Shown here: piece by piece, positions 3,307-63,568 of the stretch
Layout: each line of letters begins with the position of its first letter
Numbering within the stretch: position 1 is the stretch's first letter
Assembly (NCBI GenBank): GCA_965219875.1
Contig: CBDCOW010000003.1
Location: 1,002,458-1,066,457, forward strand
Direction of reading: 5' to 3'
DNA from: Dehalococcoidia bacterium
Lineage (GTDB): Bacteria > Chloroflexota > Dehalococcoidia > SHYB01
DNA length: 64,000 nucleotides
Program-made: the position numbers and the translations under genes
Notes under the pieces: model-generated
What the model saw: the letters and a program-made list of their open reading frames with translations, nothing else
Database searches by the model: none
What the model was told of the DNA's origin: nothing

Positions 3307-3332
3307 ACCCCTCCCTCGGAAGCGGCCCGGCG

Positions 3333-4343
3333 CTAGTACAGGTGGCAGGCGACCCGGTGGCCCGGCGCGGCCTCTTTCATGATGGGCTCCACCTCGGCGC
3401 AGATATCCATCACGTGCGGGCACCGCGTGCGGAAACGGCACCCTGAAGGCGGGCTGATGGGCGAGGGGACCTCCCCTTGCAGCACGATCCGCTCCCGGGG
3501 GCGGGCCGGATTGGCGCTCAAGGTCGCAGAGAGCAAGGCCCGGCTGTAGGGGTGCAAGGGGTTGTTGAAGAACTCCTCGCTCGGCGCCAGCTCGGCGAAC
3601 TTCCCCAGGTACATGATGGCGACCGTATCGCCCATATACCGGACCATGGAGAGGTCGTGCGAAATGACGAAGAAGGTCAGCCCAAGTTGAGCTTGCAGAT
3701 CTTTGAGCAGGTTGACGATCTGCGCGCGAATGGAAACGTCGAGGGCCGAGACCGGTTCGTCGAGCACCAGCATCTTCGGCGCGAGGCCCAGCGCGCGGGC
3801 GATCGCGATCCGCTGGCGTTGGCCGCCGCTGAACTCGTGCGGATAGCGCTCGGCGTGGACTGGCGACAACGTCACCTGCTCGAGTAGCGACGCCACCTTG
3901 TCGTTGACTTCTTGTTTCGAGAGGCGCTCGTTGATCACCAGAGGTTCGGCGATGATGCTCCCGACACGCAGCTTGGAGTTGAGCGAGCTCCAGGGGTCTT
4001 GGAACACGGCCTGGACGTTGCCCCGGTAAGCCCGCGTCTCCTCTCGGGTCAAGCTGTCGATTTCGGCGCCTTGCCAGCGGAGCATCCCGCCGGTAGGCCG
4101 TTCGAGCTTGAGGAGCAGGTTCGCCAGCGTCGTCTTGCCACAGCCGGACTCGCCCGCCAAGCAAAAGGTCTCGCCCTCGGTAATCTCGAAGTCGACGCCG
4201 TCGACGGCCTTCACCGTCCGCTTGCCGTAGGCGAACACGCCCCGGCCCACGGCGAAATGCTTCTTCACCCCCAGGGCCTCAACAAGCGGGGGTGCGGTCT
4301 GGCTGGGCGCTGGGCCTACCGCCTCTTGGACCTGCTGGGTCAC
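3333..4343 (-). CDS. ABC transporter ATP-binding protein, DppF/OppF-like
   Basis: Walker A GESGCGKTT, signature FSGGQRQRIAIARAL, Walker B LVLDEPVSALD, H-loop ISHDL, plus the C-terminal oligopeptide-ABC extension with CRFRTRCPHV. Proposed GTG start at 4343..4341, overlapping the upstream TGA (GTGA). The longer track ORF runs into the upstream gene. Confidence 0.85.
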   Translation of the reverse strand: MTQQVQEAVGPAPSQTAPPLVEALGVKKHFAVGRGVFAYGKRTVKAVDGVDFEITEGETFCLAGESGCGKTTLANLLLKLERPTGGMLRWQGAEIDSLTREETRAYRGNVQAVFQDPWSSLNSKLRVGSIIAEPLVINERLSKQEVNDKVASLLEQVTLSPVHAERYPHEFSGGQRQRIAIARALGLAPKMLVLDEPVSALDVSIRAQIVNLLKDLQAQLGLTFFVISHDLSMVRYMGDTVAIMYLGKFAELAPSEEFFNNPLHPYSRALLSATLSANPARPRERIVLQGEVPSPISPPSGCRFRTRCPHVMDICAEVEPIMKEAAPGHRVACHLY

Positions 4344-7495: not shown

Positions 7496-8401
7496 TCAGG
7501 CAGATTGAAGGGTGGCGACACTGAAGACGACGGAGAAGGGCTTGCAGTAGATGACCACGCTATTGAAGACCGACACGTCCACGCCAGCAGGGATCACGTA
7601 GTTCTGGTTCCCCCGGTTGCCCTTCAGGTCTCCCAGATCGACGTACCCGCCCAACTTGACCTCGTCCGACCGGGTCGGGTCCTCGTGGGGCGACAAAATC
7701 ACGTGGAGAGCCGGGCCATTGGTCACGTCAAGGTTTTCCAGCCGGAGCAAGTGGCCGCCGCCGGGAGTGCTGAAGATGATTGCTTGACCACTCCCCCGGT
7801 GAAAGCTGTCGGCGTCTTTGAAGTTGCCCTGCTTCACCTTCCGGGCTTCGTCCTGTTGATTGACGTTCGCCATGATGACCGGCTCCATCATGCGGGCGCC
7901 CCGTTCTACCATCTCCATGTCGGCCGCGGCGCGGACCATCGTGAACCCTTCCGTCAGGGCGGCGTGGTCGTCGTCACTCATTACCGTGATAGAACTGCCG
8001 GACGCCAGCATCGCCCCGGCGTTTATGGCCGAGGCTCCGGGCATATCCTCCCTCATCACCGGGTCGTCAACCATCGCCATCCCGGCCATAGCTCCCTCTA
8101 CGTCGGCCCGTTCCATTCCCTCGGGCACCACGGCATTGAAGGCGAAGGGGAACTCTTCCTCCACGGTAACGTTGATGAATAACGGCGATCCAAGCGACCA
8201 GCCAACCCAAAGGGTAATAGCCAGCATTGGGACTGAAGCGATGCCGAAGGCCACGCGATTGCGCCAAATGACCTGATGCCAGCCGCGCCGATAGCCGAAG
8301 GCGAGGACTGCGGCGATAAACACCAAAGTGGCGGCCCCGATGAGCCAACGGTACTCGTAGAGGCTGGCGAACGTGCGTTCAACATCACCGATAGTCGACA
8401 T
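7496..8401 (-). CDS. Membrane-anchored DM13 (electron-transfer) domain protein with Met-rich linker
   Basis: N-terminal TM helices. A Met-rich segment (MAGMAMVDDPVMREDMPG...MVRAAADMEMVERGARMMEPVIM) follows. The C-terminal ~110 aa match the DM13 domain pattern (NFKDADSFHRGSGQAIIF...LRLENLDVTNGPALHVILS...KGNRGNQNYVIPAGVDVSVFNSVVIYCKPFSVVF). ATG at 8401 is preceded by GGAGGG. The track start at 8413 is a TTG. Confidence 0.7.
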   Translation of the reverse strand: MSTIGDVERTFASLYEYRWLIGAATLVFIAAVLAFGYRRGWHQVIWRNRVAFGIASVPMLAITLWVGWSLGSPLFINVTVEEEFPFAFNAVVPEGMERADVEGAMAGMAMVDDPVMREDMPGASAINAGAMLASGSSITVMSDDDHAALTEGFTMVRAAADMEMVERGARMMEPVIMANVNQQDEARKVKQGNFKDADSFHRGSGQAIIFSTPGGGHLLRLENLDVTNGPALHVILSPHEDPTRSDEVKLGGYVDLGDLKGNRGNQNYVIPAGVDVSVFNSVVIYCKPFSVVFSVATLQSA

Positions 8402-8546
8402 TGCACCCTCCAAGGATCCTCTGCTTTTCGAGCCCAGCCCAGTCCGGACCTGAGCACTAAGGTACTAGATTCTGCCCAGCTGGTGGACCCGAACTTGGTC
8501 AAGACCGGAGATAGGCGTGAGATCGCTAGGATGAATGTGGTCGACT

Positions 8547-9347
8547 CTAGCGGGCCTTCCACTCGGCGGGACGCTTTTCAGTGAACGCCAGCGGTCCTTC
8601 CTTGGCGTCCTCGGTTTGGCTGATCTGGGCGTAGATCATGTCGCCGAATTTCTGCGACTCTTCCATCGCCAGACGGCGCCAAAAGTGCATCATCTTCCTT
8701 GTCGCCTGGACCGCGAGCGGCGCGTTGGCGGCGATGGCGCCGGCGATTTCGATTGCCCGCGGCATCAGTCGGTCCGGTGCCGTGACCTCATGGACGAAGC
8801 CAATGCGGCGCGCTTCCTCCGCCGACATCGTCTCACCCGTCAGGGCGTAGTACATGGCCTCGCCGAAATGCGTCACCCTCGCAAAGTGATGAATGCCATA
8901 AATGGCAAGAATGCCACGCTTCACTTCGGGCAGGCCGAATGTCGCCTCCGTCGAGGCGATGCGGATGTCGCAGTCCATCGCCTCCTCCATACCGCCCCCG
9001 AGCGCAAGCCCATTGACCGCCGCGATGATGGGCTTGGGGCTTCGAGAGAAGATGCCCGGCCCCCGGGGCTGGCCCATGTCGGCGCGCTCCCGGCGTTCCC
9101 CGGACGAATCCTCCTCGGCGTCTTGATCGCGCTGGGCCATCTCCTTCAGGTCCGCTCCCGCGGAAAAGGCGCGGCCCGTGCCGGTCACGATGGCCACCCG
9201 CATACTGGGGTCCTCATCGAAGTCGTCCATGGCCTCCCGCCGCTCGGCGATCATCTGCCTCCCGAAGGCGTTGAGACGGTCGGGACGATTCATGGTGAAC
9301 AGCGCGTAGTGCTCGGCGTCACGCTTCTCGTAGATCCAGTACGGCAT
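8547..9347 (-). CDS. Enoyl-CoA hydratase/isomerase (crotonase) family protein
   Basis: HYALFTMNRPDRLNAF...VTGTGRAFSAGADLKE...IIAAVNGLALGGGMEEAMDCDIRIAS is the crotonase fold signature. Confidence 0.85.
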   Translation of the reverse strand: MPYWIYEKRDAEHYALFTMNRPDRLNAFGRQMIAERREAMDDFDEDPSMRVAIVTGTGRAFSAGADLKEMAQRDQDAEEDSSGERRERADMGQPRGPGIFSRSPKPIIAAVNGLALGGGMEEAMDCDIRIASTEATFGLPEVKRGILAIYGIHHFARVTHFGEAMYYALTGETMSAEEARRIGFVHEVTAPDRLMPRAIEIAGAIAANAPLAVQATRKMMHFWRRLAMEESQKFGDMIYAQISQTEDAKEGPLAFTEKRPAEWKAR

Positions 9348-16421: not shown

Positions 16422-18272
16422 ATGGCTCCCTCTATTTCCCGCAAATTGATGGTGATCCTCGCCGTAGGCATTGTCACCGCGCTTGTCGCGTCGGCATGCG
16501 GCGGGGCGCAAGGACCGCCTGGGCCAGCAGGGCCGGCGGGCGCTCAAGGGCCGGCGGGCGCCGAAGGACCGGCGGGCGCCGAAGGACCGGCGGGCGCTCA
16601 AGGACCGTCGGCGGGTGTGGCTCCGGCTCCCACGGCCATGCCGGCTCCGACGGCCGCTCCCACGGCCATGCCGGCTCCGACGGCCGCTCCCACGGCCATG
16701 CCGGCTCCGACGGCTACACCGGCTCCGCCTCCTCCGACGGAGGGACCCAGCATCAAGCGCGGCGGCTCGCTGATCCGCTCAGAGCGGAAGGACCCGCCGC
16801 ACCTCGACCCGCACGCCTCCGTCGCCGCCATCGACCTCTTCTACATCTCGCAACTCTACAGCACGCTGCTCATGAACCCCGCTGGAACGGAGCTCGTGTG
16901 CGACCTGTGCGAGACCTGGGAGTACGTGGGCGACGGCACCACCGCCGTATTCAATCTCAGGGAAGACCCCACCTTCGCCGATGGCTCGCCCGTTGAGGCG
17001 CAAGACGTGGTCTATAGCCTTAACAAGATGGTCGGACTGGTGCCTGATGAAGCTAAGTCCACCAAATGTGGAGCGATGAGCGTCTACCTGGCGGAGGACA
17101 ACCCCTTCGAGGCCCCCGACAGCCGGACGGTCGTCATCAACCTGGCCTTCTCAGCCGCCGCGTTCCCCAAGTTCATCGCCATGAACTTCTGCGGCGTCGT
17201 CCAGGACGGCACCCCCCGGGACGCCCTCAAGACCGAGGCGATGGGGAGCGGCGCTTTCGTGATCGGGCGGTGGGACACCGGAGCCGTGGTCGAGATGGAG
17301 GCCCGCGCCGACTTCTGGAAGGAGGGCTTCCCCTACCTGGACTCCTTCGTCATTCCGATCATCTCCGACACGACCGCCGCGACCGCCGCGGTGCTCACCG
17401 GACGGCTAGACCGGGCCCGGGTGAGCTCGAGCGCGGACCAGCGCTCGGAGTACGACAGGTTCGTGGCCGAGGGCAAAGGGGAGTGGCAACTGGAGCCGTG
17501 CAATTGCATCTGGGGCGTCGCCATGAACACGACGCGCCCGCCTTTCGACAACCAGATGCTCAGACAGGCGGTGAACCTCGCCCTCGACCGTGAAAGCCAC
17601 GACGCGATCGTGCGCAATGGGCAAGCGTCCGTGAGCCTCTACCAGCCAGGCTTGTGGCCCGGCGCCCGGACGGCGGACGAGATATGGAACAAGATTCCGG
17701 GATGGGCTACCGGAGACGCGAAGGAGGCGGAGCTCGAGCAGGCGAGACAGCTCGTGGCCGAAGCGGGCTATCCCGACGGTATCGACGTCACGATCCTGCA
17801 CAGCGGCTATTCAGCCTCGATCACGCGATGGGTCGAGTGGGTCTCCACGCAGCTGCCCAGAGTCGGAATCAACGTGACCGCGGACACCTACCCCGACCGG
17901 GCAAGCTTTTTCGAGCAGTTCAACAGCTTCGGGTTCGATATGGTCTATTTCGCGTGGGTGACGGGATTGCCCGAGCCGGACGTGTGGATCGGTCAGTTCT
18001 TCAGAAGCACCGGGAGTTCCAACATCACCGGCTTCAACGACCCCGTCATCGACGAGATGTTCGTGGAGCAGAGCTCGACGCTCGATCCGCAGAAGAGGAT
18101 CGAGCTCGTGACCCAGATCGAAGACAGGATTCTCGAGCAGATGCCCATCGCTCCGGCGTCGGACAGCTTCTCGAACTTCATCATGTGGAACCACTTCATG
18201 GGCTATGACAACGCCAACGGAGAGTTCTACCATGACCGGGCAGAGTGGCTCTACGATGGAAGGGTGCAGTAG
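16422..18272 (+). CDS. ABC transporter substrate-binding lipoprotein, family 5 (DppA/OppA-like) with collagen-like and Pro/Thr/Ala-rich linker
   Basis: Signal peptide with lipobox-like LVASAC. The mature domain matches SBP_bac_5. Residues 27-107 are low-complexity: GPPGPAGPAGAQGPAGAEGPAGAEGPAGAQGP followed by APTAMPAPTAAPTAMP... Confidence 0.9.
   Translation: MAPSISRKLMVILAVGIVTALVASACGGAQGPPGPAGPAGAQGPAGAEGPAGAEGPAGAQGPSAGVAPAPTAMPAPTAAPTAMPAPTAAPTAMPAPTATPAPPPPTEGPSIKRGGSLIRSERKDPPHLDPHASVAAIDLFYISQLYSTLLMNPAGTELVCDLCETWEYVGDGTTAVFNLREDPTFADGSPVEAQDVVYSLNKMVGLVPDEAKSTKCGAMSVYLAEDNPFEAPDSRTVVINLAFSAAAFPKFIAMNFCGVVQDGTPRDALKTEAMGSGAFVIGRWDTGAVVEMEARADFWKEGFPYLDSFVIPIISDTTAATAAVLTGRLDRARVSSSADQRSEYDRFVAEGKGEWQLEPCNCIWGVAMNTTRPPFDNQMLRQAVNLALDRESHDAIVRNGQASVSLYQPGLWPGARTADEIWNKIPGWATGDAKEAELEQARQLVAEAGYPDGIDVTILHSGYSASITRWVEWVSTQLPRVGINVTADTYPDRASFFEQFNSFGFDMVYFAWVTGLPEPDVWIGQFFRSTGSSNITGFNDPVIDEMFVEQSSTLDPQKRIELVTQIEDRILEQMPIAPASDSFSNFIMWNHFMGYDNANGEFYHDRAEWLYDGRVQ
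16500..16745 (+). repeat. Intragenic tandem repeats (18-nt GGACCGGCGGGCGCCGAA-type units, then three 30-nt units) encoding 11 Gly-X-Y triplets and a PT-rich linker
   Basis: Directly visible nucleotide periodicity inside the SBP gene. Confidence 0.8.
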
Positions 18273-25554: not shown

Positions 25555-26864
25555 GGGGCGCCGGCGGCGGTCCACTCGGCGACGCGAACGGGATCGGGCG
25601 GCTGCTTGACGCAACCGTAGGCGCCGCCGAGCCGTTGGAAGTCCCTGGACTTCTTGGCCAGATGCCGCCGGAAATGGATGACGGCAACGTCTAGCGTGCC
25701 CAGCTTCTGGGGAATGTCCATATTGATGGCGCCTTTGGCGAAGACCGGGAAGTCTTCCTTCTCATTCACCGCGATGAGCTGGTTGGGCAGGCGATAGGTG
25801 TAGTACCAAAGGTCCTCAAAGGCCTGGCCCAAGGGGGTCCGAGGGCGTTTCGAAATCGTGAACGACCAGACCCGGGTGTCCCATTCGTCCACCGGCACGC
25901 TCCAGCGCAGGTGGAGGGCTCCCACCGGGACGCGCACAATGGAGGGCAGTTGCACCGTGTGCTCGACACCGAATCCCATGTCCTTCCTTGGGGCTCGGGG
26001 TAATCGTCGCCACCACGTGTGGCGGGGCCACTTTCCCAGTCCGGGATATTCGTTCTGCCCGTACTCCACGTCCCGTTGGATGCACGCGACGTAGTTTTCG
26101 CCCTCGTCGATGATCCTAATGCCGTTGGTCACCACCGGTTTGGGGCGCAAAAACGGCAGCTTGTGGTCGATGAGGTGCCAGAACTTCGTCCTGCGGTGGA
26201 GGTAGAACTCGTGGTAGTCGATCCCCTGCCACGTAGGCTCCGTCCAGTTAGTCTCCCAACTCCGCACGCGGGCATGGCGCGTCGTGTTCAGACTGTCGTC
26301 AAGGAATTCCCAGGGAAGGTCGTCCTCCAAGGGGACCGGCGTAGTCATGCCCATCCAGATGAAGACGATCCCGTTGCGCTCGGCGGTGGGATAATTCTTG
26401 GCCCGCAGCTTGGGGGCCAGCGGCGAATTCACGCTCTCGATGAGGCCCGCGACGCACTGGCCCGTCTCGTCGAAGACGTACCCGTGGTAGGGGCACGTGA
26501 CGGTCCCCACGAAGTCGCACTCACCCAGCGAAAGGCGCGCACCGCGGTGCGGACACCAATCGGTCAACGCGACGACGTTGCCCTTGGCCCCCCGGAACAG
26601 GACGATGTCCTCGCCCAACATACGGACTTTGACCGGACGCTTCCGCCCGACCTTCGCGGCCCATACGCCCGGGTACCAGTACTCTCGAAAGCCTACCCTC
26701 GGGCAGTAGTCGAAGGGGCCTATCTGAGAGGCTCCGCGCGCCTCCTCCCCGCTCTGCCGCCACGAGGAGGTCGTTGAAGACTCCGGCCTTGCGCTCGTCG
26801 TCGCCATACCCAGCCCCCAGACCTCGGCGCTCGCCCGCGCCGAATTTGCCCTAGTGTAGCCCAT
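25551..26864 (-). CDS. Rieske [2Fe-2S] non-heme iron oxygenase alpha-subunit-like protein
   Basis: CPHRGARLSLGECDFVGTVTCPYHGYVF is the Rieske CxH-x17-CxxH motif. The downstream catalytic domain has conserved His/Asp. Alternative ATG at 26807. Confidence 0.8.
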   Translation of the reverse strand: MGYTRANSARASAEVWGLGMATTSARPESSTTSSWRQSGEEARGASQIGPFDYCPRVGFREYWYPGVWAAKVGRKRPVKVRMLGEDIVLFRGAKGNVVALTDWCPHRGARLSLGECDFVGTVTCPYHGYVFDETGQCVAGLIESVNSPLAPKLRAKNYPTAERNGIVFIWMGMTTPVPLEDDLPWEFLDDSLNTTRHARVRSWETNWTEPTWQGIDYHEFYLHRRTKFWHLIDHKLPFLRPKPVVTNGIRIIDEGENYVACIQRDVEYGQNEYPGLGKWPRHTWWRRLPRAPRKDMGFGVEHTVQLPSIVRVPVGALHLRWSVPVDEWDTRVWSFTISKRPRTPLGQAFEDLWYYTYRLPNQLIAVNEKEDFPVFAKGAINMDIPQKLGTLDVAVIHFRRHLAKKSRDFQRLGGAYGCVKQPPDPVRVAEWTAAGAP

Positions 26865-27246
26865 CCATCAACGCATGCCCTGCCGAATCTCGCAAGGCGC
26901 CGCCGCGCAGGCGACTGAAAAGAGCCCGGTGTCGCCGATCTGTTGACTACTGAGTTGGCCGTAGAACAGCAAGACCACTCTGGCACGCCGCCGACAGGGC
27001 TACCGGCCCATTCGGCGTCGAGGAACAACGCGGCCAAATCAAGCTATGGCATCGCGACCCCGGGCGCTGTCCGCAATTAAGCCGGACCGGAAGTGGTGGG
27101 CCGATGTGTACGATAGATGGCACTGTCTTCGAGATGTGGATTGGCAGTCTGTGAGCTTTCCCAAACACTTAGCTCGGGTATTTTGGTGGGATAGGGTTAG
27201 GCAACGGAAGTGAGGGCAACCTGTCTACCAGCTCAAATCCTATTTC

Positions 27247-27928
27247 CTAATCACCGTGGCTTCCCCAGTTTCGCCTTACCTCAATCATGCCTCCCAAACA
27301 CCGCTTCATCAATACGGCAATGCCCACCATGCACTGGATCCAATTGTCCACGTTCTTCTGGGTGACGCGGGGGATCTCGTAAGTGAGACCACGTAACGCA
27401 AACCCGATGCGTCCGCTTTGGCCATCTTCAGGCTCCGTCAGGTCGTCCACCAAACTAAAAACCTGCTGAGTGCCGAAATGCACGAAGGCATTCGACCAAT
27501 TGTAAAGAGCGACAACGTTCGCGTCAGGCCGTCCTGAATCGAGGCGGGCTTGCAACCTTTTCACCAAGTACCGCTCGCGCATTAGGTGGCCTGAAGCAGA
27601 CTTGAGCTTGAATTCGATCCCCAGCCACAATGCGTTGGGCAAACTCGTGGTGACCTCCTATGTACTCGTCGCTGGCTACGGCTATGAGAACATGCTCCAG
27701 CGTGGGCCTAATGAATAGAGTCGCAGCGTAGTGATTATCCTCGCGCACCATTTTTGCGAATGCGTCGATAAACGCGTTCGTCCGTTTGGCTAAGGCGGGA
27801 ACTACGAATTCACAGGCTCCACAAATCGCTCCGTCAGATGCTAGCCACCAATCCTTGTGGAGGATATTGATCGAATCTATCTCAGATTCGAGTTCCTTTA
27901 ATGTTTGCTCCAAACCTGGGAACTTCAT
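27247..27928 (-). CDS. Hypothetical protein(s) of AT-rich islet; two overlapping ORFs (27524..27928 and 27247..27642) that may be one frameshifted gene
   Basis: The upstream ORF ends in a low-complexity tail (RIVAGDRIQAQVCFRPPNARAVLG...) after EFAQ. The downstream ORF begins protein-like only 6 codons after an in-frame stop. No domain recognised. Confidence 0.35.
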
Positions 27929-28015
27929 TTCATCCTTTCACTCGGCTGACAGTCTGACCCTCGTTGACAGAAGGGAAGTGGGCCACTTGAACGTTGCCAT
28001 CTGGCTTATGTCCCG

Positions 28016-29008
28016 TTAAAGTGCCTTTGTCTCCTCTCTTTCCTTCCTACGGTAGTAGTAGGCCAATTGCTGGCAGCTTTTATCGCAGTACTTCTGCCGA
28101 CCGTGCATTGGCTCAAAATAACGTCCACAGCCAGCTCGCTCACAAAGCATCGCAGGACGGCTACGCCCCGAGAGTTCCAGCATGAAATGTGTGTAGAGCG
28201 AGCTCAATAGGCAGTCTGGAAAGAAGAAGATCTCACCTTTACGAAAGGGGAGCACGGCGGGACTGACGTGGCCCCTTAGGCTGCTGTTAACCTCTCGATG
28301 CACAAAGTAGCGGACTGGTTCTACGGGATCTCCATAATTCCAGCGTTCCAATAGCTCTACATCATTACCGTTCTCCTCGTGAGCTAGTACCCTCACTTCC
28401 GAGTGTCTCGTGCGGGTGGCCAGATCCTTGTCCCGGCGTAAGTAATCACGAAACTCGTCGGGGCGATGCCGCATGAATTGTGCGAGGTCGGGTCGGAGCT
28501 TTCCGTCTATGTCCACGAGATAGAGTCGAACCTGTTGCGGTGTGCCCTGTGACGTCCACTCGACCAATTGACTCAATTCCCTCCGGCCTCCCCGCATGAT
28601 GAACTCCCATAGGGAGACCAGTCGGGCCATGCGCTCGATCTCCTTCTTCCAGACCCCAACAGGCTCCCCGATTACCATTCGCTGGTCGCTCGAGCCTGAG
28701 TCCTCAAGCCATGACCCGTGACCCAGGAGCCCATATTTGTCGGCGAAGGCAACGATGGACTCGGCAATGGGCTTAGTCCGAGCAAACCGCCTGTGCAGAT
28801 TAGCAACGGCCAGTGGTGAGTACTGGCGCACGTACAGGCTGTCCGGTCTGACCAACCAGGGTCCGGCAGTATTCTTCCCAGTCCCCTTGTCATCAACTAC
28901 GACGAGTTCCTCACGCAAGCTGAAACCATCCTCAGGCACTCGGAGGAGAGCTGCAAATGGTCCTCGTGTCATTGCCCGGAATGGCTGTCGTTCTCCCTCT
29001 AGCGTCAT
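28016..29008 (-). CDS. Hypothetical protein with C-terminal Cys4 zinc ribbon (islet gene)
   Basis: 331 aa from ATG 29008. C-terminus LCERAGCGRYFEPMHGRQKYCDKSCQQLAYYYRRKERE. No recognisable catalytic domain. Lower GC than the genome background. Confidence 0.5.
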   Translation of the reverse strand: MTLEGERQPFRAMTRGPFAALLRVPEDGFSLREELVVVDDKGTGKNTAGPWLVRPDSLYVRQYSPLAVANLHRRFARTKPIAESIVAFADKYGLLGHGSWLEDSGSSDQRMVIGEPVGVWKKEIERMARLVSLWEFIMRGGRRELSQLVEWTSQGTPQQVRLYLVDIDGKLRPDLAQFMRHRPDEFRDYLRRDKDLATRTRHSEVRVLAHEENGNDVELLERWNYGDPVEPVRYFVHREVNSSLRGHVSPAVLPFRKGEIFFFPDCLLSSLYTHFMLELSGRSRPAMLCERAGCGRYFEPMHGRQKYCDKSCQQLAYYYRRKEREETKAL

Positions 29009-29129
29009 CTTTATCCTCCTAACAGAAGTTCGATGCAAACTAGATGTATATACTCTAACAATGTAGCTTTAAGCGCGTTATTATGATTATAACCATAGAA
29101 ACCATCAGTGAGAAAGGGGTAGTCGGATT

Positions 29130-29411
29130 ATGGGCACGAAAGTATCATTTGAAGCTCGGTCTATTCTGCAGGAGGCAGTTTGCGGAGATGGCCTAATCAG
29201 CTTCACTCGTACCTTTGGTGGACAGTCCATCGCCACGAATGGTAAGGCAATGATTCCAGATGAGAAACCGAGAACCATCGCTCAATGGATCGGTGGCCTT
29301 GAGGAACTAGCACGGCTTGGCTACATCAGGGACATCGGTTACAAGGGAGAGGCGTTTGAGGTTACAAGAGAAGGTTACGAAGCGGCAGATGAGATACTCG
29401 ATACTGTCTAG
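29130..29411 (+). CDS. Hypothetical small protein (islet gene)
   Basis: 93-aa ORF preceded by AAAGGGG 8 nt upstream. Divergent from 28016..29008 across an AT-rich promoter region. Confidence 0.4.
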   Translation: MGTKVSFEARSILQEAVCGDGLISFTRTFGGQSIATNGKAMIPDEKPRTIAQWIGGLEELARLGYIRDIGYKGEAFEVTREGYEAADEILDTV

Positions 29412-29600
29412 CTCCGTCTGATGGGGATTCGGCGATGCCTAATGGGCCCCTATTCTACGGACTGGCCTCCATAGCAGCTCATCCCGCAGGAGCATCCACT
29501 TTCGGGGCTCAAGGGAGAGTCTAACCTGAGGGAGGGAGACGTGGGAGTCCCAAGCCGCCATTACCTATGAGGAGAGACCGCAACCGGAGGAGAAGAGCAT

Positions 29601-29750
29601 ATGAACGAACGAACTGTTTACGAGTTCCCAGGCTCCGATCGCGAGTTAGAGATCGACTCAGATGTAGCATGGCACACTGGCCCTGGCCGAGGCCGGGTAC
29701 ATGTTTCCCCGGAGGCGGGGCAGGTGATCGTCCACCCAGGCCAAGGTTAG
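29601..29750 (+). CDS. Candidate small ORF (49 aa) with strong RBS, running into degenerate tandem repeats; an amber stop separates it from 24 further in-frame repeat codons (to 29825)
   Basis: GGAGGAGAAGAGCAT precedes the ATG. The peptide is MNERTVYEFPGSDRELEIDSDVAWHTGPGRGRVHVSPEAGQVIVHPGQG, then TAG, then VVVKSGQGQVVVTKDGPGQVIVQG. Confidence 0.25.
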   Translation: MNERTVYEFPGSDRELEIDSDVAWHTGPGRGRVHVSPEAGQVIVHPGQG

Positions 29751-29892
29751 GTAGTCGTCAAGTCGGGTCAGGGTCAAGTAGTCGTGACCAAGGACGGCCC
29801 AGGTCAAGTAATCGTCCAAGGCTGATGGGATGGTGTCCCAGCGATGGGCTCCGGTACCACCTACTGTCCACTATGTTAAGGAAATTCAAACC

Positions 29893-29968
29893 TGGTGGAC
29901 CCGAGGGGAGTCGAACCCCTGACCTCCTGAATGCAAATCAGGCGCTCTCCCAACTGAGCTACGGGCCC
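29893..29968 (-). tRNA. tRNA-Ala (anticodon UGC), CCA encoded
   Basis: Manual fold of the reverse complement: acceptor GGGCCCG/CGGGUCC with the G3:U70 Ala identity pair, D-arm GCUC-AGUUGGGA-GAGC, anticodon stem CCUGA with loop UUUGCAU, T-arm AGGGG-UUCGACU-CCCCU, 3' ACCA. 76 nt. Confidence 0.9.
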
Positions 29969-30012
29969 GCGTGCGAACGCGCCGGACGGTACGGCGTCTG
30001 GTGACGCGCTGC

Positions 30013-33612: not shown

Positions 33613-36000
33613 GTGGCCATTAGGAAGAAACGAGCGCCCCGGGGGCGCCTCAAGCGCCGGGCGCTCGAAGTCCTCGAATTCGACAAGGTGCGGGCGCGGC
33701 TCGCCCACGCCACGTCGTTTCCGCCGAGCCGCGAGCTCGCCGAGGCCATCGAGCCCTCGTACCTCCCCGCCGAGGTAGCGCGGCTTCAGGAAGAGACCCG
33801 CGAGAGCCTCCGGCTGCTCGACCTGCGCCCCTCGCTGTCGTTCGACGGCGCGGCGGACATCCGGGCCATGGCCCACGCGGGGGCGCTCGGCGGACAACTG
33901 AGCGGCCCCGAGCTACTGCGGGCCGCTGAGACGTTGGTGGTCATGCGCTCGGCAAGGGCGAACCTGACGCGGCTCGCCCGTGAGTTGCCGCTTCTCGCCG
34001 AGATCGCGTCGGGCCTCTGCGAATTCGACGACTTCGTGAAGACCGTCCGCGGCGCGCTCAGCCGGAGCGGCGAGGTGCTCGACGACGCGACCGAGCTACT
34101 GGCGCGGCTGCGCGCCGAGGAGCGCCAGGCCCAGGAGCGCATCCAGACGCGGCTCGAAGAGATCATCGCCTCGCCCGAAGGCCGGCGCGTGCTCCAAGAG
34201 GGGTTCGTCGCCATGCGCGGCGACCGCTTCGTGCTCGCGGTGAAGGCCGAATTCCGCGGCCAGTTCGAGGGGCTCATCCACGATATCTCGTCCACCGGCG
34301 CGACGGTATTCATGGAGCCGTTGACCGTCGTCGAGGCGGGGAACGCCTGGCGCGAGCTCAAGCTTGCCGCGGCCCGCGAGACCGAGCGCATCCTACGCAG
34401 TCTGACCGCGATGCTCGGCGAGCGGGAAGAGGCAATCGCCACTGGCGTCGAGCGGCTGGCCGCGCTGGACCTAGCGCTCGCCAAGGCACGCCTCGGACGG
34501 GAGATGCACGGCGCGGTCCCCGCGGCCCTCGACGACGACGGCGAGGAAGCGGTGCGCCTGATCGACGCGCGCCATCCGCTGCTCGGCGACGACGCCGTCC
34601 CCATGTCGCTGGAGATCGGCAAAACGTACCGAGCGCTCGTCATCTCGGGGCCGAACACCGGCGGGAAGACCGTCGCCCTGAAGACCGTCGGGCTGCTTGC
34701 GCTGATGGCGCAGGCCGGCCTGCCCATCCCCGCCGCAGGCGGCTCGGCATTCAAGGCGTTCGACGGCATCTACGCCGACATCGGCGATGAGCAGAGCATC
34801 GAGCAGTCGCTCTCTACGTTCAGCGCCCACATGGGGACGATCGTCGATATCCTCGGCGCGGCGACGGGGCGCTCGCTCGTGCTGCTCGATGAAGTCGGCG
34901 CGGGCACCGATCCTCAGGAGGGCGCCGCCCTCGGCAAGGCCATCCTCTCCACGCTCACCGAGCGGCGCGCCGTCACCGTGGTGACCACGCACCACAGCGA
35001 GATCAAGGGTTTCGCCAACGTGTCCGGCGGCGTGGAGAACGCCAACGTTGAGTTCGATCCGGTCACGCTGGCGCCGACCTTCCGGCTTGTCGTCGGCATA
35101 CCCGGCCGGAGCAACGCCCTCGCCATAGCCGAACGCCTGGGTCTTCCGCCCAAAGTGCTCGAAGTCGCCAGAAACTCGGTGGGGCAGAGCGCCGCCGAGG
35201 TCGAGATGCTGCTCGAAGACATCCAGCGGCGCCACGCCGAGGCGGAGCGGGAGCGCGCCGGCGCCGAGGCCGAACGGCGCGCGATCGAGTCGGAGCGGGC
35301 CGCCGTGGAGCAGCGGACCGAGGTGCTGGAGGCGGAGCACCGCCAGGCCCTGCTCGAACAGCGCGTCGAGGCGCAGGTGATGGCCGAGGAGATGAAGAGC
35401 CGCCTGCGCCACGCCGGGCGGCGCGTCAACGCACTGGTGAACGAAAAGGGCCGCGACGAGCTCGCCCGCCTCTCGACTGAGGTCAACGAGGTGCGGAAGA
35501 CACTGGGGACCGGGCCGTGGAAAGATGCCCGCCCGCCCGCCGCCGCCGAGGGCCTCAAGGCCGGCGACCTCGTCCGCGTGCGGGGCCTCGAACCCGTAGC
35601 CGAGGTACTCGGCGCCGGAGGCGACGGCCGCCTCCACGTACAGGCGGGACCGCTGCGGATCGAAGTCCCGCTGGACCGTATCGAGGGCAAGGTCGCCAGG
35701 CCAAAGACCGCGCCGCGCCCCGGCTACACCGTGGACGAGGGGGTGAAGCGCCGGGCCCGCGTCGGCGACGAGTTCTGGGTCCATGGGATGCGCGCGCAGC
35801 AGGCCGTCGAAGCCATCGACGAATATATCGAGAAGGCCGTGCTCGCCGAGCACCGCCGCGTGCGGATCATCCACGGGAAGGGCCGCGGCATCCTGCGCGA
35901 CGTCATCCACCACGCCCTCGACCGGCATCCCCTCGTGGGCATGTTCTACGACTCCGAGCCCGGCGATGGCGGCGAAGGCGTCACCATCGCCGAGCTGTAG
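33613..36000 (+). CDS. mutS2: Endonuclease MutS2 (MutS domain + C-terminal Smr domain)
   Basis: Walker A ISGPNTGGKT, LVLLDEVGAGTDPQEG, HH motif and coiled-coil region. C-terminal Smr with IIHGKGRGILR. GTG start 33613 preceded by GGGGGAG. Confidence 0.9.
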   Translation: MAIRKKRAPRGRLKRRALEVLEFDKVRARLAHATSFPPSRELAEAIEPSYLPAEVARLQEETRESLRLLDLRPSLSFDGAADIRAMAHAGALGGQLSGPELLRAAETLVVMRSARANLTRLARELPLLAEIASGLCEFDDFVKTVRGALSRSGEVLDDATELLARLRAEERQAQERIQTRLEEIIASPEGRRVLQEGFVAMRGDRFVLAVKAEFRGQFEGLIHDISSTGATVFMEPLTVVEAGNAWRELKLAAARETERILRSLTAMLGEREEAIATGVERLAALDLALAKARLGREMHGAVPAALDDDGEEAVRLIDARHPLLGDDAVPMSLEIGKTYRALVISGPNTGGKTVALKTVGLLALMAQAGLPIPAAGGSAFKAFDGIYADIGDEQSIEQSLSTFSAHMGTIVDILGAATGRSLVLLDEVGAGTDPQEGAALGKAILSTLTERRAVTVVTTHHSEIKGFANVSGGVENANVEFDPVTLAPTFRLVVGIPGRSNALAIAERLGLPPKVLEVARNSVGQSAAEVEMLLEDIQRRHAEAERERAGAEAERRAIESERAAVEQRTEVLEAEHRQALLEQRVEAQVMAEEMKSRLRHAGRRVNALVNEKGRDELARLSTEVNEVRKTLGTGPWKDARPPAAAEGLKAGDLVRVRGLEPVAEVLGAGGDGRLHVQAGPLRIEVPLDRIEGKVARPKTAPRPGYTVDEGVKRRARVGDEFWVHGMRAQQAVEAIDEYIEKAVLAEHRRVRIIHGKGRGILRDVIHHALDRHPLVGMFYDSEPGDGGEGVTIAEL

Positions 36001-36026
36001 CGCCTCCCTCCCCTCCGGGCCTCTTC

Positions 36027-36240
36027 TCCCCACGGAGACCCTTGCGTAACTCGCCCCTATCCGTCTTTCCCGCGAAAGCGGGAATCCATCCCTCCCGTAG
36101 GGGCGCCCCTGGTGGGCGCCCTCCCCTCTGACCTCTCCCCCTCTGGGGGAGATTTTAGAGAGGGCACGCGCCGCTAGGCGCGCGAGCGCCCGACAGGCGC
36201 TTCTCCCTCCTCGACCCGGTTACGCAAAGGTCTCCCCACG
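36027..36240 (+). repeat. MITE-like structured intergenic repeat bounded by 17-bp terminal inverted repeats GGAGACC(C)TTGCGTAAC ... GTTACGCAAAGGTCTCC
   Basis: The TIRs are directly visible at 36028..36045 and 36224..36240. The interior is a chain of GC-rich hairpins (CCCGCgaaaGCGGG, GGGCGCCCctggtGGGCGCCC, CCCCCtctGGGGG). Confidence 0.6.
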
Positions 36241-36341
36241 GGAGAGGGCAGGGTGGGGGGCCCCCTTTCGACCACCAAAGCCCCTCGAAGCCCATCCAAA
36301 AGACTGCTAGCATTGCGCAAGACTCGCGCGAGCAAAACGAC

Positions 36342-37748
36342 ATGCCCAACCGGCGAGCGTCATCAATGGGCGGCCAACGCGCCCTGATTCCCTCCGGCGG
36401 GCCCGGCGACGCCTTCGGGCCCCCGAGCGTCGACGCGCCTCTCGCCGCGCGGATGCGTCCGCGCACCCTCGACGAGCTCGCCGGTCAGAAGGACCTTGTC
36501 GGCGAAGGCCGCGTCCTGCGCAAGGCCATCGACGCCGACCGCCTCCCCTCGATGGTGCTGTGGGGCCCGCCAGGGACGGGCAAGACCACCCTGGCCCGCA
36601 TCATCGCCGGCATGACCGAATCTCACTTCGCGCCGGTGAGCGCCGTCTCCTCCGGGGTCGCCGACCTCCGCCGCATCATCGCCGAGGCCCAGGAGCGGAC
36701 GCGGGAGACCGGGCGGCGCACCGTCCTCTTCATCGACGAGATCCACCGCTTCAACAAGGCGCAGCAGGACGCGATCCTGCCCCACGTCGAAGAGGGAACG
36801 GTCACCTTCATCGGGGCCACCACGGAGAACCCATCGTTCGAGGTCATCTCGCCGCTGCTCTCGCGCGCCCGCGTCTTACCTCTCAAGGCGCTCGGCGAGG
36901 ATGACCTGCGGGCCATCGTCACCCGCGCGCTGAGCGACGAGGAGCGCGGCCTCGCCGCGCTTGGCGTGGGCATCGACGACGACGCCCTCGACTTCCTCGT
37001 CGCGCTCGGCAACGGCGACGCGAGGGTCACGCTGAACGCCCTCGAACTCGCGGCGCAGGCGACGGAGCCCGGCGACGGAGGGCGGCGCGTCATCCAACTG
37101 CCCACGCTGTACGAGGTCGCCCAGCGCCGCACCCTGCGCTACGACAAGGGCGGCGACGAGCACTACGACACCATCTCCGCCTTCATCAAGTCGATACGCG
37201 GCTCCGACCCCGACGCCGCCGTCTACTGGCTGGCGCGGATGCTGGAAGCGGGCGAGGACCCGCTCTTCGTGGCCCGCCGCATCGTGATCCTCGCCGCCGA
37301 GGACATCGGCCTCGCCGACCCCCAGGCCCTCAGCGTGGCCGTCGCCGCCCAGCAGGCGGTGAGCTTCATCGGCATGCCGGAGGGCTTCCTGCCTCTGTCC
37401 GAAGCCGCGCTCTACCTCGCCACGGCCCCGAAGAGCAACTCAGCGCTCACCGCCTACACCGCCGCCAAGGCGGAGGTCGAGGCGACGGCGAACCGCCCCG
37501 TGCCGCTGCACCTGCGCAACGCCGTGACCGGTCTCGGCCACGCCCTGGGCCATGGCAAGGGCTACCGCTACGCCCACGACTTCTCCGACCATCAAGTCGA
37601 CCAACAGCACCTGCCCGAAGAGCTCGCCGGGCGGCGCTTCTACAAGCCGGGAACACAGGGCTACGAGGCGGAGGTCGCCAAGCGCCTCGAATCATGGGGC
37701 AAAACCCCGCCACCCTCGGAGGAGCCCGACGAGCGGCTGCCCTGGTAA
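36342..37748 (+). CDS. rarA: Replication-associated recombination protein A (AAA+ ATPase RarA/MgsA)
   Basis: Walker [12 protein letters not shown], Walker [13 protein letters not shown], sensor GATTENP, C-terminal MgsA helical domains ([44 protein letters not shown]). Confidence 0.9.
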
Positions 37749-37780
37749 CCCGCCCCCTCCGGCCTCCCGCCCCCCTCTGG

Positions 37781-38458
37781 GGACCTTTGCACAACCGTCC
37801 GCGGGCAAGCATGGGTGGGGCCGGGAGGTCTTGCCTCTTCTCCCCACGGGAGAAGATTGAGATGAGGGGCCCCCTCGCAACCGCCACGGGTTATCGAAGT
37901 CCGCCACCCTCGCGGTCATTCACTCCGGTTACGCAAAGGTCTCCGCCAGAGGAGACCTTTGCACAACCGTCCGCGGGCAAGCATGGGTAGGGCCGGGAGG
38001 TCTTGCCTCTTCTCCCCACGGGAGAAGATTGAGATGAGGGGCCCCCTCGCAACCGCCACGGGTTATCGAAGTCCGCCACCCTCGCGGTCATTCACTCCGG
38101 TTACGCAAAGGTCTCCGCCAGAGGAGACCTTTGCACAACCGTCCGCGGCAAGCATGGGTGGGGCCGGGAGGTCTTGCCTCTTCTCCCCACGGGAGAAGAT
38201 TGAGATGAGGGGCCCCCTCGCAACCGCCACGGGTTATCGAAGTCCGCCACCCTCGCGGTCATTCACCCCGGTTACGCAAGGGTCTCCGCCAGAGGAGACC
38301 TTTGCACAACCGTCCGCGGCAAGCATGGGTGGGGCCGGGAGGTCTTGCCTCTTCTCCCCACGGGAGAAGATTGAGATGAGGGGCCCCCTCGCAACCGCCA
38401 CGGGTTATCGAAGTCCGCCACCCTCGCGGTCATTCACCCCGGTTACGCAAGGGTCTCG
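37781..38458 (+). repeat. Head-to-tail tandem array of ~4 copies of a 171-172-bp MITE-like unit (same TIR family)
   Basis: Unit starts at 37783, 37955, 38127 and 38298, more than 98% identical. Each junction forms a perfect 12-bp palindrome GCAAAGGTCTCC-gccaga-GGAGACCTTTGC. There is an internal 9-bp hairpin TCTTCTCCC-cac-GGGAGAAGA. Confidence 0.9.
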
Positions 38459-39028
38459 GTAAGAGCGATTCGCGACTCGCCCCTGACGCGCGGCCGACCC
38501 CCACGGCCAATATTGCGCGCCGATGATACTTGGCACACCTTGCCTCTCCGCCTCCCACCCCACGACATCGCCCCCTTCCCCATCCCCACCGCCGCCCCCT
38601 ACCATGTCCTTGCATGTCTTAGGCCTACTCAGCCACCGGCGCCGGCTCAGAGGGAAGAGCCGCGCCCCGTGGCGCGGAGCGGCGCCCTCCCTCCGGGAAC
38701 TCCTGCGCTCCTCCCAAGCGCGAGGAGTTTCAAGCGAGGCCGAGGCCGGCCTTGAAGCGGGCGCCCGAGGCCGCGGATGAGACCGCCGGACATGCCGGAG
38801 TTGCAACGTGACGTATGGGAAGATCGCTCGCTACCGTAACCTTTAGTCGAGCCCGCATGAGCGCCTCGCGGCGCGGCCATGCTCCCCATCCGGCACCGCC
38901 CAGCCCCGTGATCGGTAAAAGGTTACCCCCCTTGGCCCCCGTGCGCCCGTCGCCGCCCCCAACCGCGCAAACGAGGGTTGGGGTTGGGGCCGGGGCGGCG
39001 CCGTGCTAGACTCGCTCGCTGCAAGCCC

Positions 39029-39715
39029 ATGCCGAGGACCACGCTCTACGCAAGCCCCGCCGACGCCGTCGCCGACGTCCCCGACGGCGCCAGCATCATG
39101 ATCGCCGGCTTCGGCATGGCGGGGTATCCACAGGCCCTGGTGCTGGCGCTCCGCGACCGGGGCGTCAGGGACCTCACCATCATCTGCAATTCCTGCGGAG
39201 GGACGCGCGCCGACCGGCTCGACCCCGGCATCCTCATCAAGGCCGGCATGGTGCGGAAGGCGATCGTGTCGATCGGCGTCTTGCCCGGCAACTCCGCGCC
39301 CGAGGTCGAGGAGCAGTGGTCGAGGGGCACGCTCGAAATCGAGCTTTCGCCCCAGGGCACGCTTGCCGAGCGCATCCGGGCCGGCGGCGCGGGCATCGGC
39401 GGCTTCTACACCCCCGTGGGCGCGGGGACCGCCGTCGAGGAGGGCAAGGAGAAGCGGGCCATTGGCGGCGTGGAACACCTGCTCGAACTGCCGCTCCGCG
39501 CCGACTACGCCTTCGTCCAGGCGCACCGGGCCGACACGCTGGGCAACCTCGTCTTCCGCCGCACCTCCCGCAACTTCAACCCCATCATGGCGGCGGCCGC
39601 CGACGTCACCATCGCCGAGGTCGAGGCCATCGTCGACCCCGCCGAGATCGACCCCGAGCGCATCGGCGCCGCGGGAGTCTACGTCGACCGCGTCGTCCAG
39701 GCCGACCGCCCCTAG
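39029..39715 (+). CDS. 3-oxoacid CoA-transferase subunit A (ScoA/AtoD-like)
   Basis: IMIAGFGMAGYPQALVLALRDRGVRDLTIICNSCG...ELSPQGTLAERIRAGGAGIGGFYTPVGAGT is the subunit-A signature. ATG 39029. Confidence 0.85.
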   Translation: MPRTTLYASPADAVADVPDGASIMIAGFGMAGYPQALVLALRDRGVRDLTIICNSCGGTRADRLDPGILIKAGMVRKAIVSIGVLPGNSAPEVEEQWSRGTLEIELSPQGTLAERIRAGGAGIGGFYTPVGAGTAVEEGKEKRAIGGVEHLLELPLRADYAFVQAHRADTLGNLVFRRTSRNFNPIMAAAADVTIAEVEAIVDPAEIDPERIGAAGVYVDRVVQADRP

Positions 39716-40374: not shown

Positions 40375-40394
40375 TTTGCCACTCCACCGGCGGA

Positions 40395-40500
40395 GACTCT
40401 TGCGTAACCTGTCCGTGAGCGGGCGTCCACAAGGGGCGCCCCTACGGGAAGGGATGGATTCTCGCTTGCGCGGGAATGACGGATGCCCTGCGTTCCAAAG
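40395..40500 (+). repeat. Partial copy of the MITE-like element (TIR GGAGACTCTTGCGTAAC, then an interior matching the 36027 copy in inverted orientation)
   Basis: Sequence identity to 36045..36110 is visible in reverse complement. It sits in the divergent promoter region between scoB and the hydantoinase operon. Confidence 0.5.
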
Positions 40501-40562
40501 CTCTGCACAGATCCCCGGCGGGCTCATTCTACCCCAGCGGCGGTGCCTTTCCGCGGCCCCGA

Positions 40563-48169: not shown

Positions 48170-48300
48170 ATGTATCGCTATATGAAACCTCGCCGGAGCC
48201 TCCCGTCGGGGCGCTCCTCGTGGGCGCCCTCTCCTCCGGCCCCCTCTCCCGCCGGGAGAGGGTTGGGGTGAGGGCGGGGGGTGGCGGGGCGCGCCAAGGT
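48170..48300 (+). repeat. GC-rich structured intergenic repeat (related hairpin modules GGGCGCCC and CCCTCTCCC-gcc-GGGAGAGGG; no family TIR)
   Basis: Shares hairpin modules with the MITE-like family but lacks GGAGACCTTTGCGTAAC. It precedes a sharp drop in GC. Confidence 0.4.
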
Positions 48301-53181: not shown

Positions 53182-53505
53182 CTACGAAGTTGGGATTAGG
53201 CTTCTGACGCGCTGTCCGCCGATAGCGACTACGCCCTCTGCGTTCAGGCCGCCGATCGCGACAACCCCGATCGCGTTGATTCCGCCAATCGCGACGACGC
53301 CCATCGCGTTGACCCCGCCGATCGCAACCAGTCCCATGGCATTCACGGGGGAGAACGTCACCAACCCCATCGCGTTGACCACGCTGAGCGCGACAAGACC
53401 GACCGCGTTGAAGGTACTCGCTGCCACGGCTCCGACCGCGTTGGTGCCCACCGCGACAATCCCAATCGCATTCTTGCCCCTGACGACTAAGTCCTGCGTT
53501 TGCAT
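53182..53505 (-). CDS. Small repeat protein: eight tandem 11-residue repeats x-N-A-x-G-x-V-A-I-G-G (33-nt DNA repeats)
   Basis: ATG 53505 preceded by GGAGGG 5 nt upstream. Protein KNAIGIVAVGT NAVGAVAAST FNAVGLVALSV VNAMGLVTFSP VNAMGLVAIGG VNAMGVVAIGG INAIGVVAIGG LNAEGVVAIGG. The opposite strand also translates repetitively (PPIATTPIAL...), so strand choice rests on the RBS and ATG. Confidence 0.45.
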   Translation of the reverse strand: MQTQDLVVRGKNAIGIVAVGTNAVGAVAASTFNAVGLVALSVVNAMGLVTFSPVNAMGLVAIGGVNAMGVVAIGGINAIGVVAIGGLNAEGVVAIGGQRVRSLIPTS

Positions 53506-63306: not shown

Positions 63307-63475
63307 CCCAAGGAGACCTTTGCGTAACTGGGACTTGACCACACGGGTGGCGGTCTTCGATAGGGTGTGGCGGTTGCGAGGGGGCCCCTCATCTCAATCT
63401 TCTCCCGGGGGGAGAAGAGGCAAGACCTCCCGGCTCCACCCATCTCAGCCCTCGGACGGGTCAACGTAAGGGTCT
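63307..63475 (-). repeat. Inverted single copy of the 172-bp MITE-like unit with both TIRs
   Basis: 63340..63440 is the reverse complement of the array-unit core (CGAGGGGGCCCCTCATCTCAATCTTCTCCC...). TIRs AGGAGACCTTTGCGTAAC and GTCAACGTAAGGGTCTCC at the ends. Confidence 0.7.
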
Positions 63476-63568
63476 CCAAAGGAGCGAAAACACTCCCCTC
63501 TGATACAATGGCTTACAAACCAGGGACGCCGGAAGCCGCCGGCGTCCCTTTCGAGCGCACACCGCCCC

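Follow-up and report, generated by a model that had tools for sequence, protein, structure and literature searches.

Miniature elements with IS5-type ends, single and in a fourfold array, at hairpin sites of a Dehalococcoidia genome

Our analysis concerns a stretch of 64,000 nucleotides from the genome of a Dehalococcoidia bacterium (contig CBDCOW010000003.1, positions 1,002,458 to 1,066,457; hereafter the window, numbered from its first letter), in which a 17-nt terminal repeat, GGAGACCTTTGCGTAAC, bounds elements at four loci, one of them a fourfold head-to-tail array. The loci occupy the spacers between mutS2 and rarA, rarA and scoA, scoB and hyuA, and acd and leuS, a class I tRNA synthetase gene. 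The terminal repeat has 12 matches in the window at up to 3 mismatches on both strands, against a mean of 0.07 in shuffled sequences, none of 100 of which reached 12. The original prediction, a model's reading of the bare sequence, had placed here a family resembling transposable elements of the miniature inverted-repeat kind (MITEs); its repeats are real and its loci right, but its boundaries were a few bases off and were corrected by reading the sequence. It was also right in calling all copies intergenic, but placing them all in divergent or convergent promoter zones was wrong for two of the four sites: only scoB/hyuA and acd/leuS are divergent gene pairs, and mutS2 to rarA and rarA to scoA are co-directional. 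We assign a probability of about 0.8 to the reading that these elements are MITEs derived from an IS5-family insertion sequence, non-autonomous, mobilised in trans and targeted to hairpins, and that the array arose by local amplification. The features are as follows.

36034-36235, no strand assigned: element A, a MITE of 202 bp with ends GGAGACCCTTGCGTAAC and GTTACGCAAAGGTCTCC
36236-36295, plus strand: remnant of a B-type or triplex-motif element hosting A, in which GGGAGAGGG as the right arm is followed by CAGGGTGGGGGG and a tail
37779-38458, plus strand: four complete MITE units of B type, arrayed head to tail, each with both ends and 165-166 bp long
37779-37944, plus strand: array unit u1
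37951-38116, plus strand: array unit u2
38123-38287, plus strand: array unit u3
38294-38458, plus strand: array unit u4
37945-37950, 38117-38122 and 38288-38293, plus strand: the 6-nt spacers of the array, GCCAGA
40392-40506, no strand assigned: element C, a MITE of ~115 bp with a good match to the terminal repeat on the left and a degenerate one, GTTCCAAAGCTCTGC, on the right
48199-48290, plus strand: mosaic repeat lacking terminal repeats, in which a module also present in A and C (48199-48241) precedes a triplex motif (48242-48273; D20)
63312-63477, minus strand: element D, one B-type MITE of 166 bp, in the opposite orientation to the array

Element A is flanked by CCAC, a 4-bp target duplication at 36030-36033 and 36236-36239, and contains two modules, an NTS-like hairpin at 36062-36089 and, at 36133-36163, a triplex-type motif. 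Its host remnant is backed by an nhmmer match to a profile of the B core (36231-36295), by direct-repeat family D6 and by comparison with two relatives (L122 and L124; loci from other genomes are given here by their L numbers). A sits in the hairpin loop of the B-type remnant as a nested insertion. Read in reverse complement, the interior of C corresponds to the left interior of A (I9 and I12 among the inverted repeats), and it bears an NTS-like hairpin on the minus strand (40454-40481), and D is 87-91% complementary to the array units; the inverted orientations predicted for C and D agree with the inverted-repeat comparison. The triplex motif at 48242-48273 has the canonical BoxC/TM-type form CCCTCTCCC-GCC-GGGAGAGGG-TTG-GGGTGAGG, and the mosaic repeat at 48199-48290 looks, by its sequence, like an unoccupied site of the target type.

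The four near-identical tandem units (more than 98%) of the original prediction are confirmed: Tandem Repeats Finder reports an array at 37782-38457 with a period of 171, 3.9 copies and 99% matches, and the units are 98-99% alike, closer to each other than to any other copy. At its outer edges, u1 starts with GGGGACC and u4 ends with GGTCTCG, followed by GTAAGA. A triplex-type motif, TCTTCTCCC-CAC-GGGAGAAGA-TTG-AGATGAGG, lies in each B unit and in D, and changes in its third block accompany those of the arms. The 9-bp hairpin TCTTCTCCC/GGGAGAAGA noticed earlier was found in all units and corresponds to the first two blocks of this motif. The junction palindrome was also noticed correctly: where two ends abut, they pair without mismatch in a stem of 12 bp around a 6-nt loop, at -17.8 kcal/mol as DNA (z = -5.9). 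Pfam gives no match for the sole open reading frame (ORF) that runs across the array, 37959-38462, and no promoter-like or terminator-like sites were seen in a scan of 35900-39100. A CRISPR array was excluded, as the intervening segments of 130 nt are 98-99% identical and there are no unique spacers.

Two readings of the array would make it something other than a row of mobile elements. That the fourfold repeat was mis-expanded during assembly seems scarcely credible: u1 and u2 share GCGGGC, CACTCC and CAAAGG, u3 and u4 share GCGGC, CACCCC and CAAGGG, and such consistent private differences, together with a 1-nt difference in length, are atypical of polishing error or of repeat collapse or expansion; similar arrays also occur in independent assemblies. 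The B unit might alternatively be a tandem structured non-coding RNA gene with the terminal repeats as its closing stem, since it folds well on both strands (z = -3.6 and -3.1), its core is 94% identical in another species (L088), and an alignment read by eye has paired changes in one stem between D and the units. Yet any element with terminal repeats would fold well. There is no Rfam match, whether at the gathering threshold or at E <= 1, an RNAalifold analysis of 14 copies of the B core finds a double change in 3 of 26 pairs with a covariation term of -0.43 kcal/mol, and promoter-like and terminator-like sites are lacking. Both orientations occur, copies are missing from close relatives, and the internal motif fits a purine-type DNA triplex that is unable to form in RNA (PMC4666352). 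With no Rfam family and weak covariation, a conserved RNA gene, which the original prediction had named among the findings that would refute it, is extremely improbable. Separately, the B cores in L088 belong to a 759-bp element (172-930) in which a single terminal-repeat pair encloses five tandem B cores without internal ends; their 94% identity to the window unit, in a different species, may mean recent horizontal spread.

The elements have the properties of MITEs. They are non-coding, measure 115-202 bp and end in 17-nt terminal inverted repeats; they are dispersed, with four loci in the window and 107 Chloroflexota-labelled loci listed elsewhere, and they vary in presence. Three relatives with RarA 90-97% identical to that of the window (L122, L123 and L124, the last being the 97% relative) allow a comparison of orthologous sites. 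Element C is absent from the scoB-hyuA spacer of all three, an insertion polymorphism, and in L123 the spacers corresponding to those of A and the array measure 84 bp and 62 bp and are free of repeats.

The family is also found far from the window. A scan for the exact 17-mer in a collection of 596 Gb, with one genome per species, gave at least 117 loci, and 107 among the 117 listed are labelled Chloroflexota, Chloroflexi or Dehalococcoidia. An inverted partner repeat lies nearby in most of the Chloroflexota-labelled loci listed and in 1 of 10 loci from other phyla. The dispersal assumed by the original prediction is borne out by these loci, about a hundred of them from Chloroflexota metagenome-assembled genomes (MAGs), and the motif is not confined to the window. 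Short forms predominate in the fetched loci: 89 terminal-repeat pairs lie 101-410 bp apart, 39 of them at 122-125 bp, with 123-124 bp the commonest length. As a separate observation, an IS30-family transposase gene (HTH_38 and rve) lies between MITE-like ends in L103 (4171-5330), which probably reflects the entry of an IS30 element into a MITE.

Seven loci (L004, L027, L029, L084, L103, L106 and L108) hold longer elements, of 1160-1222 bp, with the same termini; the L004 element belongs to OZ252105.1 and the L106 element to JAJDVX01. Their single ORF of ~330-350 amino acids matches DUF772 (PF05598, 1e-26), an InsH-like domain at the N-terminus, and DDE_Tnp_1 (PF01609, 1.3e-30), and the transposase scores 306 bits against the IS5-family model NF033581 of NCBIfam, whose cutoff is 140. 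The copies are 56-71% identical to one another, and 44% is the top identity to annotated IS5-family transposases on plasmids. Their geometry is that of the IS5 group, with a length of ~1.2 kb, 17-nt ends and a 4-bp duplication in many copies; the duplication has 4 bp in L004, L106 and L027 and 3 bp in L108 and L029. Full-length elements and MITEs coexist at least in the genomes OZ242025.1, OZ244806.1 and OZ251500.1. A transposase with matching terminal repeats, which the original prediction had supposed, is accordingly present in other Chloroflexota genomes. Judged by protein and terminal matches, the parent appears to be an IS5-family element, identified in genomes other than the source of the window, and widespread in Chloroflexota, class Dehalococcoidia by MAG labels. 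We propose that the short elements would be moved in trans by a transposase that binds their terminal repeats and whose gene lies elsewhere in the genome; the IS5-family gene of the source lineage would then be bounded by GGAGACCTTTGCRTAAC.

Transposition should leave its mark in the flanks. We scored 82 innermost terminal-repeat pairs, including five in the window and one in L124, and used flanks displaced by 20-40 nt as controls. An exact 4-bp direct repeat abuts the ends in 26 of the 82 pairs and in 1 of 246 displaced controls, and ~15 further pairs have a 3-bp repeat; target-site duplications are far above the control level. The 8-base arms outside the duplication show complementarity at no fewer than 6 positions in 49 of the 82 pairs and in 2 of 246 controls, and nearly all these sites belong to two hairpin types. 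Under strict criteria, a complete triplex motif encloses 17 of 83 sites and an NTS-like hairpin encloses 19. The core of the original prediction, a MITE-like family moved in trans by one transposase, is strengthened by the same-ended IS5-family parents, by the duplications and by the polymorphism.

The first hairpin type, NTS/dRS3 (Ssn-related), has the form ATTCCCGC-N4-GCGGGAAT, which fits the dRS3 pattern ATTCCC(N8)GGGAAT and, with its flanks, the 28-nt NTS CGTCATTCCCGCGMAVGCGGGAATCYRG. At up to 3 mismatches the NTS has 99 sites in the 0.9 Mb of fetched loci and 0 in shuffles, and its two matches in the window, with 2 mismatches each, lie inside A (36062-36089) and C (40454-40481). The second type, BoxC/TM, has the form CCCTCTCCC-N3-4-GGGAGAGGG-N-GGGTGAGGG, where a pyrimidine arm, a complementary purine arm and a mirror third block follow each other, with T allowed for A in the pattern. 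It occurs 112 times in the loci and 0 times in shuffles; in the window it is found in each B unit, in A, in D and alone at 48242, and these motifs fit the BoxC/TM class of intrastrand triplex motifs. The two types differ in the duplication they receive: sites of the NTS type, with 4-nt loops, have a 4-bp duplication in 18 of 20 cases, and among the 23 sites of the triplex type, mostly with 3-nt loops, 13 have 3 bp and 6 have 4 bp. The match of loop size and duplication at both site types means that the duplication usually equals the loop; A, with its 4-bp CCAC at a 3-nt loop, is an exception. Full-length elements use both kinds of target (L027 versus L004, L106 and L108). The transposase may choose targets by hairpin shape or by the symmetry of the arms, which would explain why the duplication usually equals the loop.

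The same hairpins are carried by the elements themselves. An NTS-type or triplex-type hairpin lies inside 57 of 87 short elements, and 25 of the 39 forms of 123 bp have an NTS-like site beside one end. The heterogeneity of interiors had been taken as a sign of several subfamilies mobilised by one transposase; the single transposase and the shared ends hold, but the mixed interiors are mainly cargo belonging to two known hairpin classes. As the elements thus carry their own target, one is often found inserted in another, as in L067, L021, L080 and A itself. The loop occupied by A in the window holds a complete B-type MITE in L124 (46-214), with the same CCAC duplication, so that either a hot spot received independent insertions or recombination replaced an interior. 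In L122, the MITE of the L124 loop is present with a deletion between two hairpin copies. These differences at the A site imply that modules are reshuffled between relatives a few percent apart, and the interiors may have become mixed because elements carry hairpin modules and would exchange them by recombination. Tandem repeats of 33-34 nt in L020 (7272-7400), L102 (3903-4030) and L114 (6101-6185) consist of one terminal repeat and half an NTS hairpin, and probably arose by slippage between the hairpin halves in a MITE and in its flank.

Such reshuffling invites a different view, in which the terminal repeat is one palindromic module among others in a mosaic akin to repetitive extragenic palindromes (REPs) and bacterial interspersed mosaic elements (BIMEs) or to neisserial intergenic mosaic elements (NIMEs), built by recombination, by a REP-associated (RAYT-type) Y1 transposase or by an Ssn-type nuclease. 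Interiors do mix NTS/dRS3-type and BoxC-type hairpins, modules are reshuffled among close relatives, arrays of hairpin modules without terminal repeats are common (L074, L085, L041 and L110), and NIMEs themselves combine dRS3 repeats with units of 30-160 bp (PMC3898611). However, the same termini surround intact IS5-family elements and precise duplications of 3-4 bp abut them, which makes this view very unlikely. Membership of the REP/BIME class (palindromes of 20-40 bp, no duplication, a link to Y1) was rejected given the terminal repeats, the duplications and the IS5-type partner. A crude pattern search of the window and all loci, a weak test, found no GIY-YIG (Ssn-like) gene, and a search of window and loci for Y1 genes, which went no further than a crude pattern and the ORF tables of the relatives, likewise found none. 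Derivation from an IS5-family element remains our preferred explanation for the ends.

The relatives also inform on the history of the array. Between rarA and scoA, elements with these ends are missing from L123 and L127. L124 and L122 have there a B-core remnant devoid of ends and a different 166-bp MITE, which in L122 is interrupted by an IS481-family element (7620-8900). L126 has one long degenerate B element right after rarA, which starts with GGGGACC as u1 does, and the sequence to the right of the window array, GCGATTCGCGACTCGCCC, matches a segment inside it. Array copy number thus differs between relatives, the fourfold state being found only in the window and a single degenerate B element in L126. 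Taken from these alignments, the rarA-scoA spacer appears hypervariable across the lineage. Further features of these spacers in relatives are unrelated tandem repeats of 59, 34 and 28 nt in the rarA-scoA spacers of L125 (5903-6155) and L127 (2650-3050 and 3338-3425), and an IS1595-family gene (2855-3823) within a 3.2-kb insert between mutS2 and rarA in L125.

The comparison of orthologous sites in L126, L124, L122, L123 and L127 implies that the array is a lineage-specific amplification of a resident element rather than four old insertions, and local amplification of a resident B copy is the most likely origin. The pattern of differences separating u1 and u2 from u3 and u4 fits stepwise unequal exchange. 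Repeats made of hairpin modules have commonly been amplified in tandem in these genomes, with arrays of 171 nt x 3.8 copies in L074, 86 x 5.0 in L085, 72 x 5.5 in L041, 95 x 3.5 in L110 and 127 x 2.7 in L088. We suggest that a first dimer junction formed and that the resident B element was then amplified locally to four units, the likely route being unequal recombination or replication slippage between units, which the strong junction hairpin would have aided. The origin by slippage or unequal recombination put forward earlier is supported by the single orthologous copy in L126, but it leaves the 6-nt junction unexplained, and it remains inferential. The array is probably a by-product without function, and its effect would at most be to place strong hairpins in a read-through transcript of rarA. 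One of the other arrays deserves mention on its own: that of L074 (5309-5950), in a Dehalococcoidia MAG, has 3.8 copies that are 98% alike and no IS5-type ends, with a triplex-type hairpin in the unit and an NTS-like one at the junction. Its period of 171 nt, shared with the window array, was considered as a meaningful likeness and set aside as a probable coincidence, the other arrays having periods of 61-127 nt.

The array could instead have been built by transposition itself, if the hairpin of abutted ends was a target and B copies entered its loop, duplicating the 6-nt GCCAGA each time. The duplication does usually equal the loop (4 bp at 4 nt, 3 bp at 3 nt), the units are bounded exactly where the terminal repeat ends, and the junction hairpin is very stable. 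In L126, moreover, a second MITE lies in a hairpin made of the right end CTCTCC, the loop CGCT and the GGGAGAGGG arm of the target, with ends abutted across a 4-nt spacer, CGCT, that overlaps the target duplication. Nevertheless, no 6-bp duplication was found anywhere in the family, the loop rule is not strict, as A shows, and a variable stagger of 3-6 bp would be unusual for a DDE transposase. Abutted ends are very rare in a metagenome scan, which gave four loci (two are unrelated hairpins, one, from a low-GC organism, has a 7-nt spacer, and the last is a bare palindrome whose spacer has 6 nt), too few for any statement on spacer length. We regard repeated self-insertion as unlikely and give recombination or slippage the larger share.

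Several observations weigh against the explanation that we favour. The left boundary of the repeated unit lies exactly at the end of the terminal repeat, where random breakpoints would rarely fall. Units u2 to u4 begin with GGAGACC, but u1 and the L126 ortholog with GGGGACC, so that plain copying of u1 is no explanation. The GCCAGA spacer matches neither the 3-4-bp length of the duplications nor the left flank of the array, and it agrees with the right flank in no more than 4 of its 6 nt; the flanks also tell against self-insertion. The array as a whole, C and D have no clean target duplication, C and D being ambiguous. No transposase gene lies within the 64-kb window, and mobilisation in trans in the source organism is argued from other genomes. 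The MITEs and the full-length element are alike over only ~19 nt per end, which lends no support to descent by internal deletion. Finally, the raw count of 17-mers is near chance, with ~140 expected in 596 Gb, and hence the signal of the scan rests on the taxonomic enrichment and the partner repeats. 

Two features of the window lie apart from the family. Tandem repeats that look coding-like occur at 16499-16726 (18, 30 and 54 nt) and 53215-53412 (33 nt), and the region 26000-30000, with a G+C of 0.55-0.59 against 0.63-0.70 elsewhere, adjoins a tRNA gene (29896-29968) and may be an island.

Several known systems resemble parts of what we describe. Like IS5 of E. coli and other members of its family, the parent element is ~1.2 kb long and has one DDE transposase, short terminal repeats starting with GGA and often a 4-bp duplication. 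The short forms here keep only the ends, however, identity to annotated transposases is at most 44%, and the duplication has 3 or 4 bp depending on the site. IS5 targets the tetranucleotide YTAR, in contrast to the hairpin loops used here. The Correia elements of Neisseria are also MITEs (100-155 bp) with terminal repeats, for which mobilisation by the transposase of the IS5-family element IS1106 has been suggested, but they differ in terminal-repeat sequence and in their TA duplication. Targeting of REPs has been reported for the IS3, IS110, IS4, IS256 and IS5 families, and ISNm1106 (IS5 family) prefers spacers that contain REPs (PMC1525189). IS1397 and ISKpn1, of the IS3 family, likewise insert specifically into intergenic palindromic repeats (Tobes and Pareja 2006, PMC1525189), whereas the elements here are of the IS5 family, enter NTS/dRS3-type and BoxC/TM-type targets in Chloroflexota precisely at the loop, and have MITEs that carry the target. 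Palindrome targeting is in our case a new example, not a new principle.

The hairpins themselves have been described from other angles. The NIMEs of Neisseria are intergenic arrays of the palindrome ATTCCC(N8)GGGAAT and units of 30-160 bp (PMC3898611); here the same palindrome is both cargo and target, and the array units are complete MITEs with four identical interiors. The NTS/Ssn-related motif has been tied to a small GIY-YIG single-strand nuclease, in work that left the accumulation of its copies open (Nat Commun 2025, PMC11893778), and is tied here to an IS5-type element. The BoxC/PIT/TM triplex motif has been linked to rearranged loci, its origin being called unclear, and no mobility functions were found beside it (Holder et al. 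2015, PMC4666352); here it is an insertion target of an insertion sequence and of MITEs and is carried within the latter. Seen at the level of sequence, the link between the element and both hairpin classes is an association, for which the mechanism outlined above is a proposal.

Overall, the elements form a new MITE family of a known kind, and the added value lies in the link to two hairpin classes whose spread has been unexplained. For annotation, they amount to a large repeat family in uncultured genomes of the Dehalococcoidia class, and the rarA-scoA spacer could serve as a strain marker. Both hairpin classes are widespread and only partly understood, and the element gives a concrete route for their spread and for local instability. 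A broader idea, which we hold tentatively and with more doubt than belief, is that this IS5-family lineage picks its targets by DNA shape, entering hairpin and triplex-motif loops whose size dictates the duplication, and that its MITEs are the missing vehicle by which NTS/dRS3 and BoxC motifs spread. If this were true, the motifs borne by MITEs would seed further insertions, nested mosaics and arrays, which would explain why such motifs mark unstable loci.

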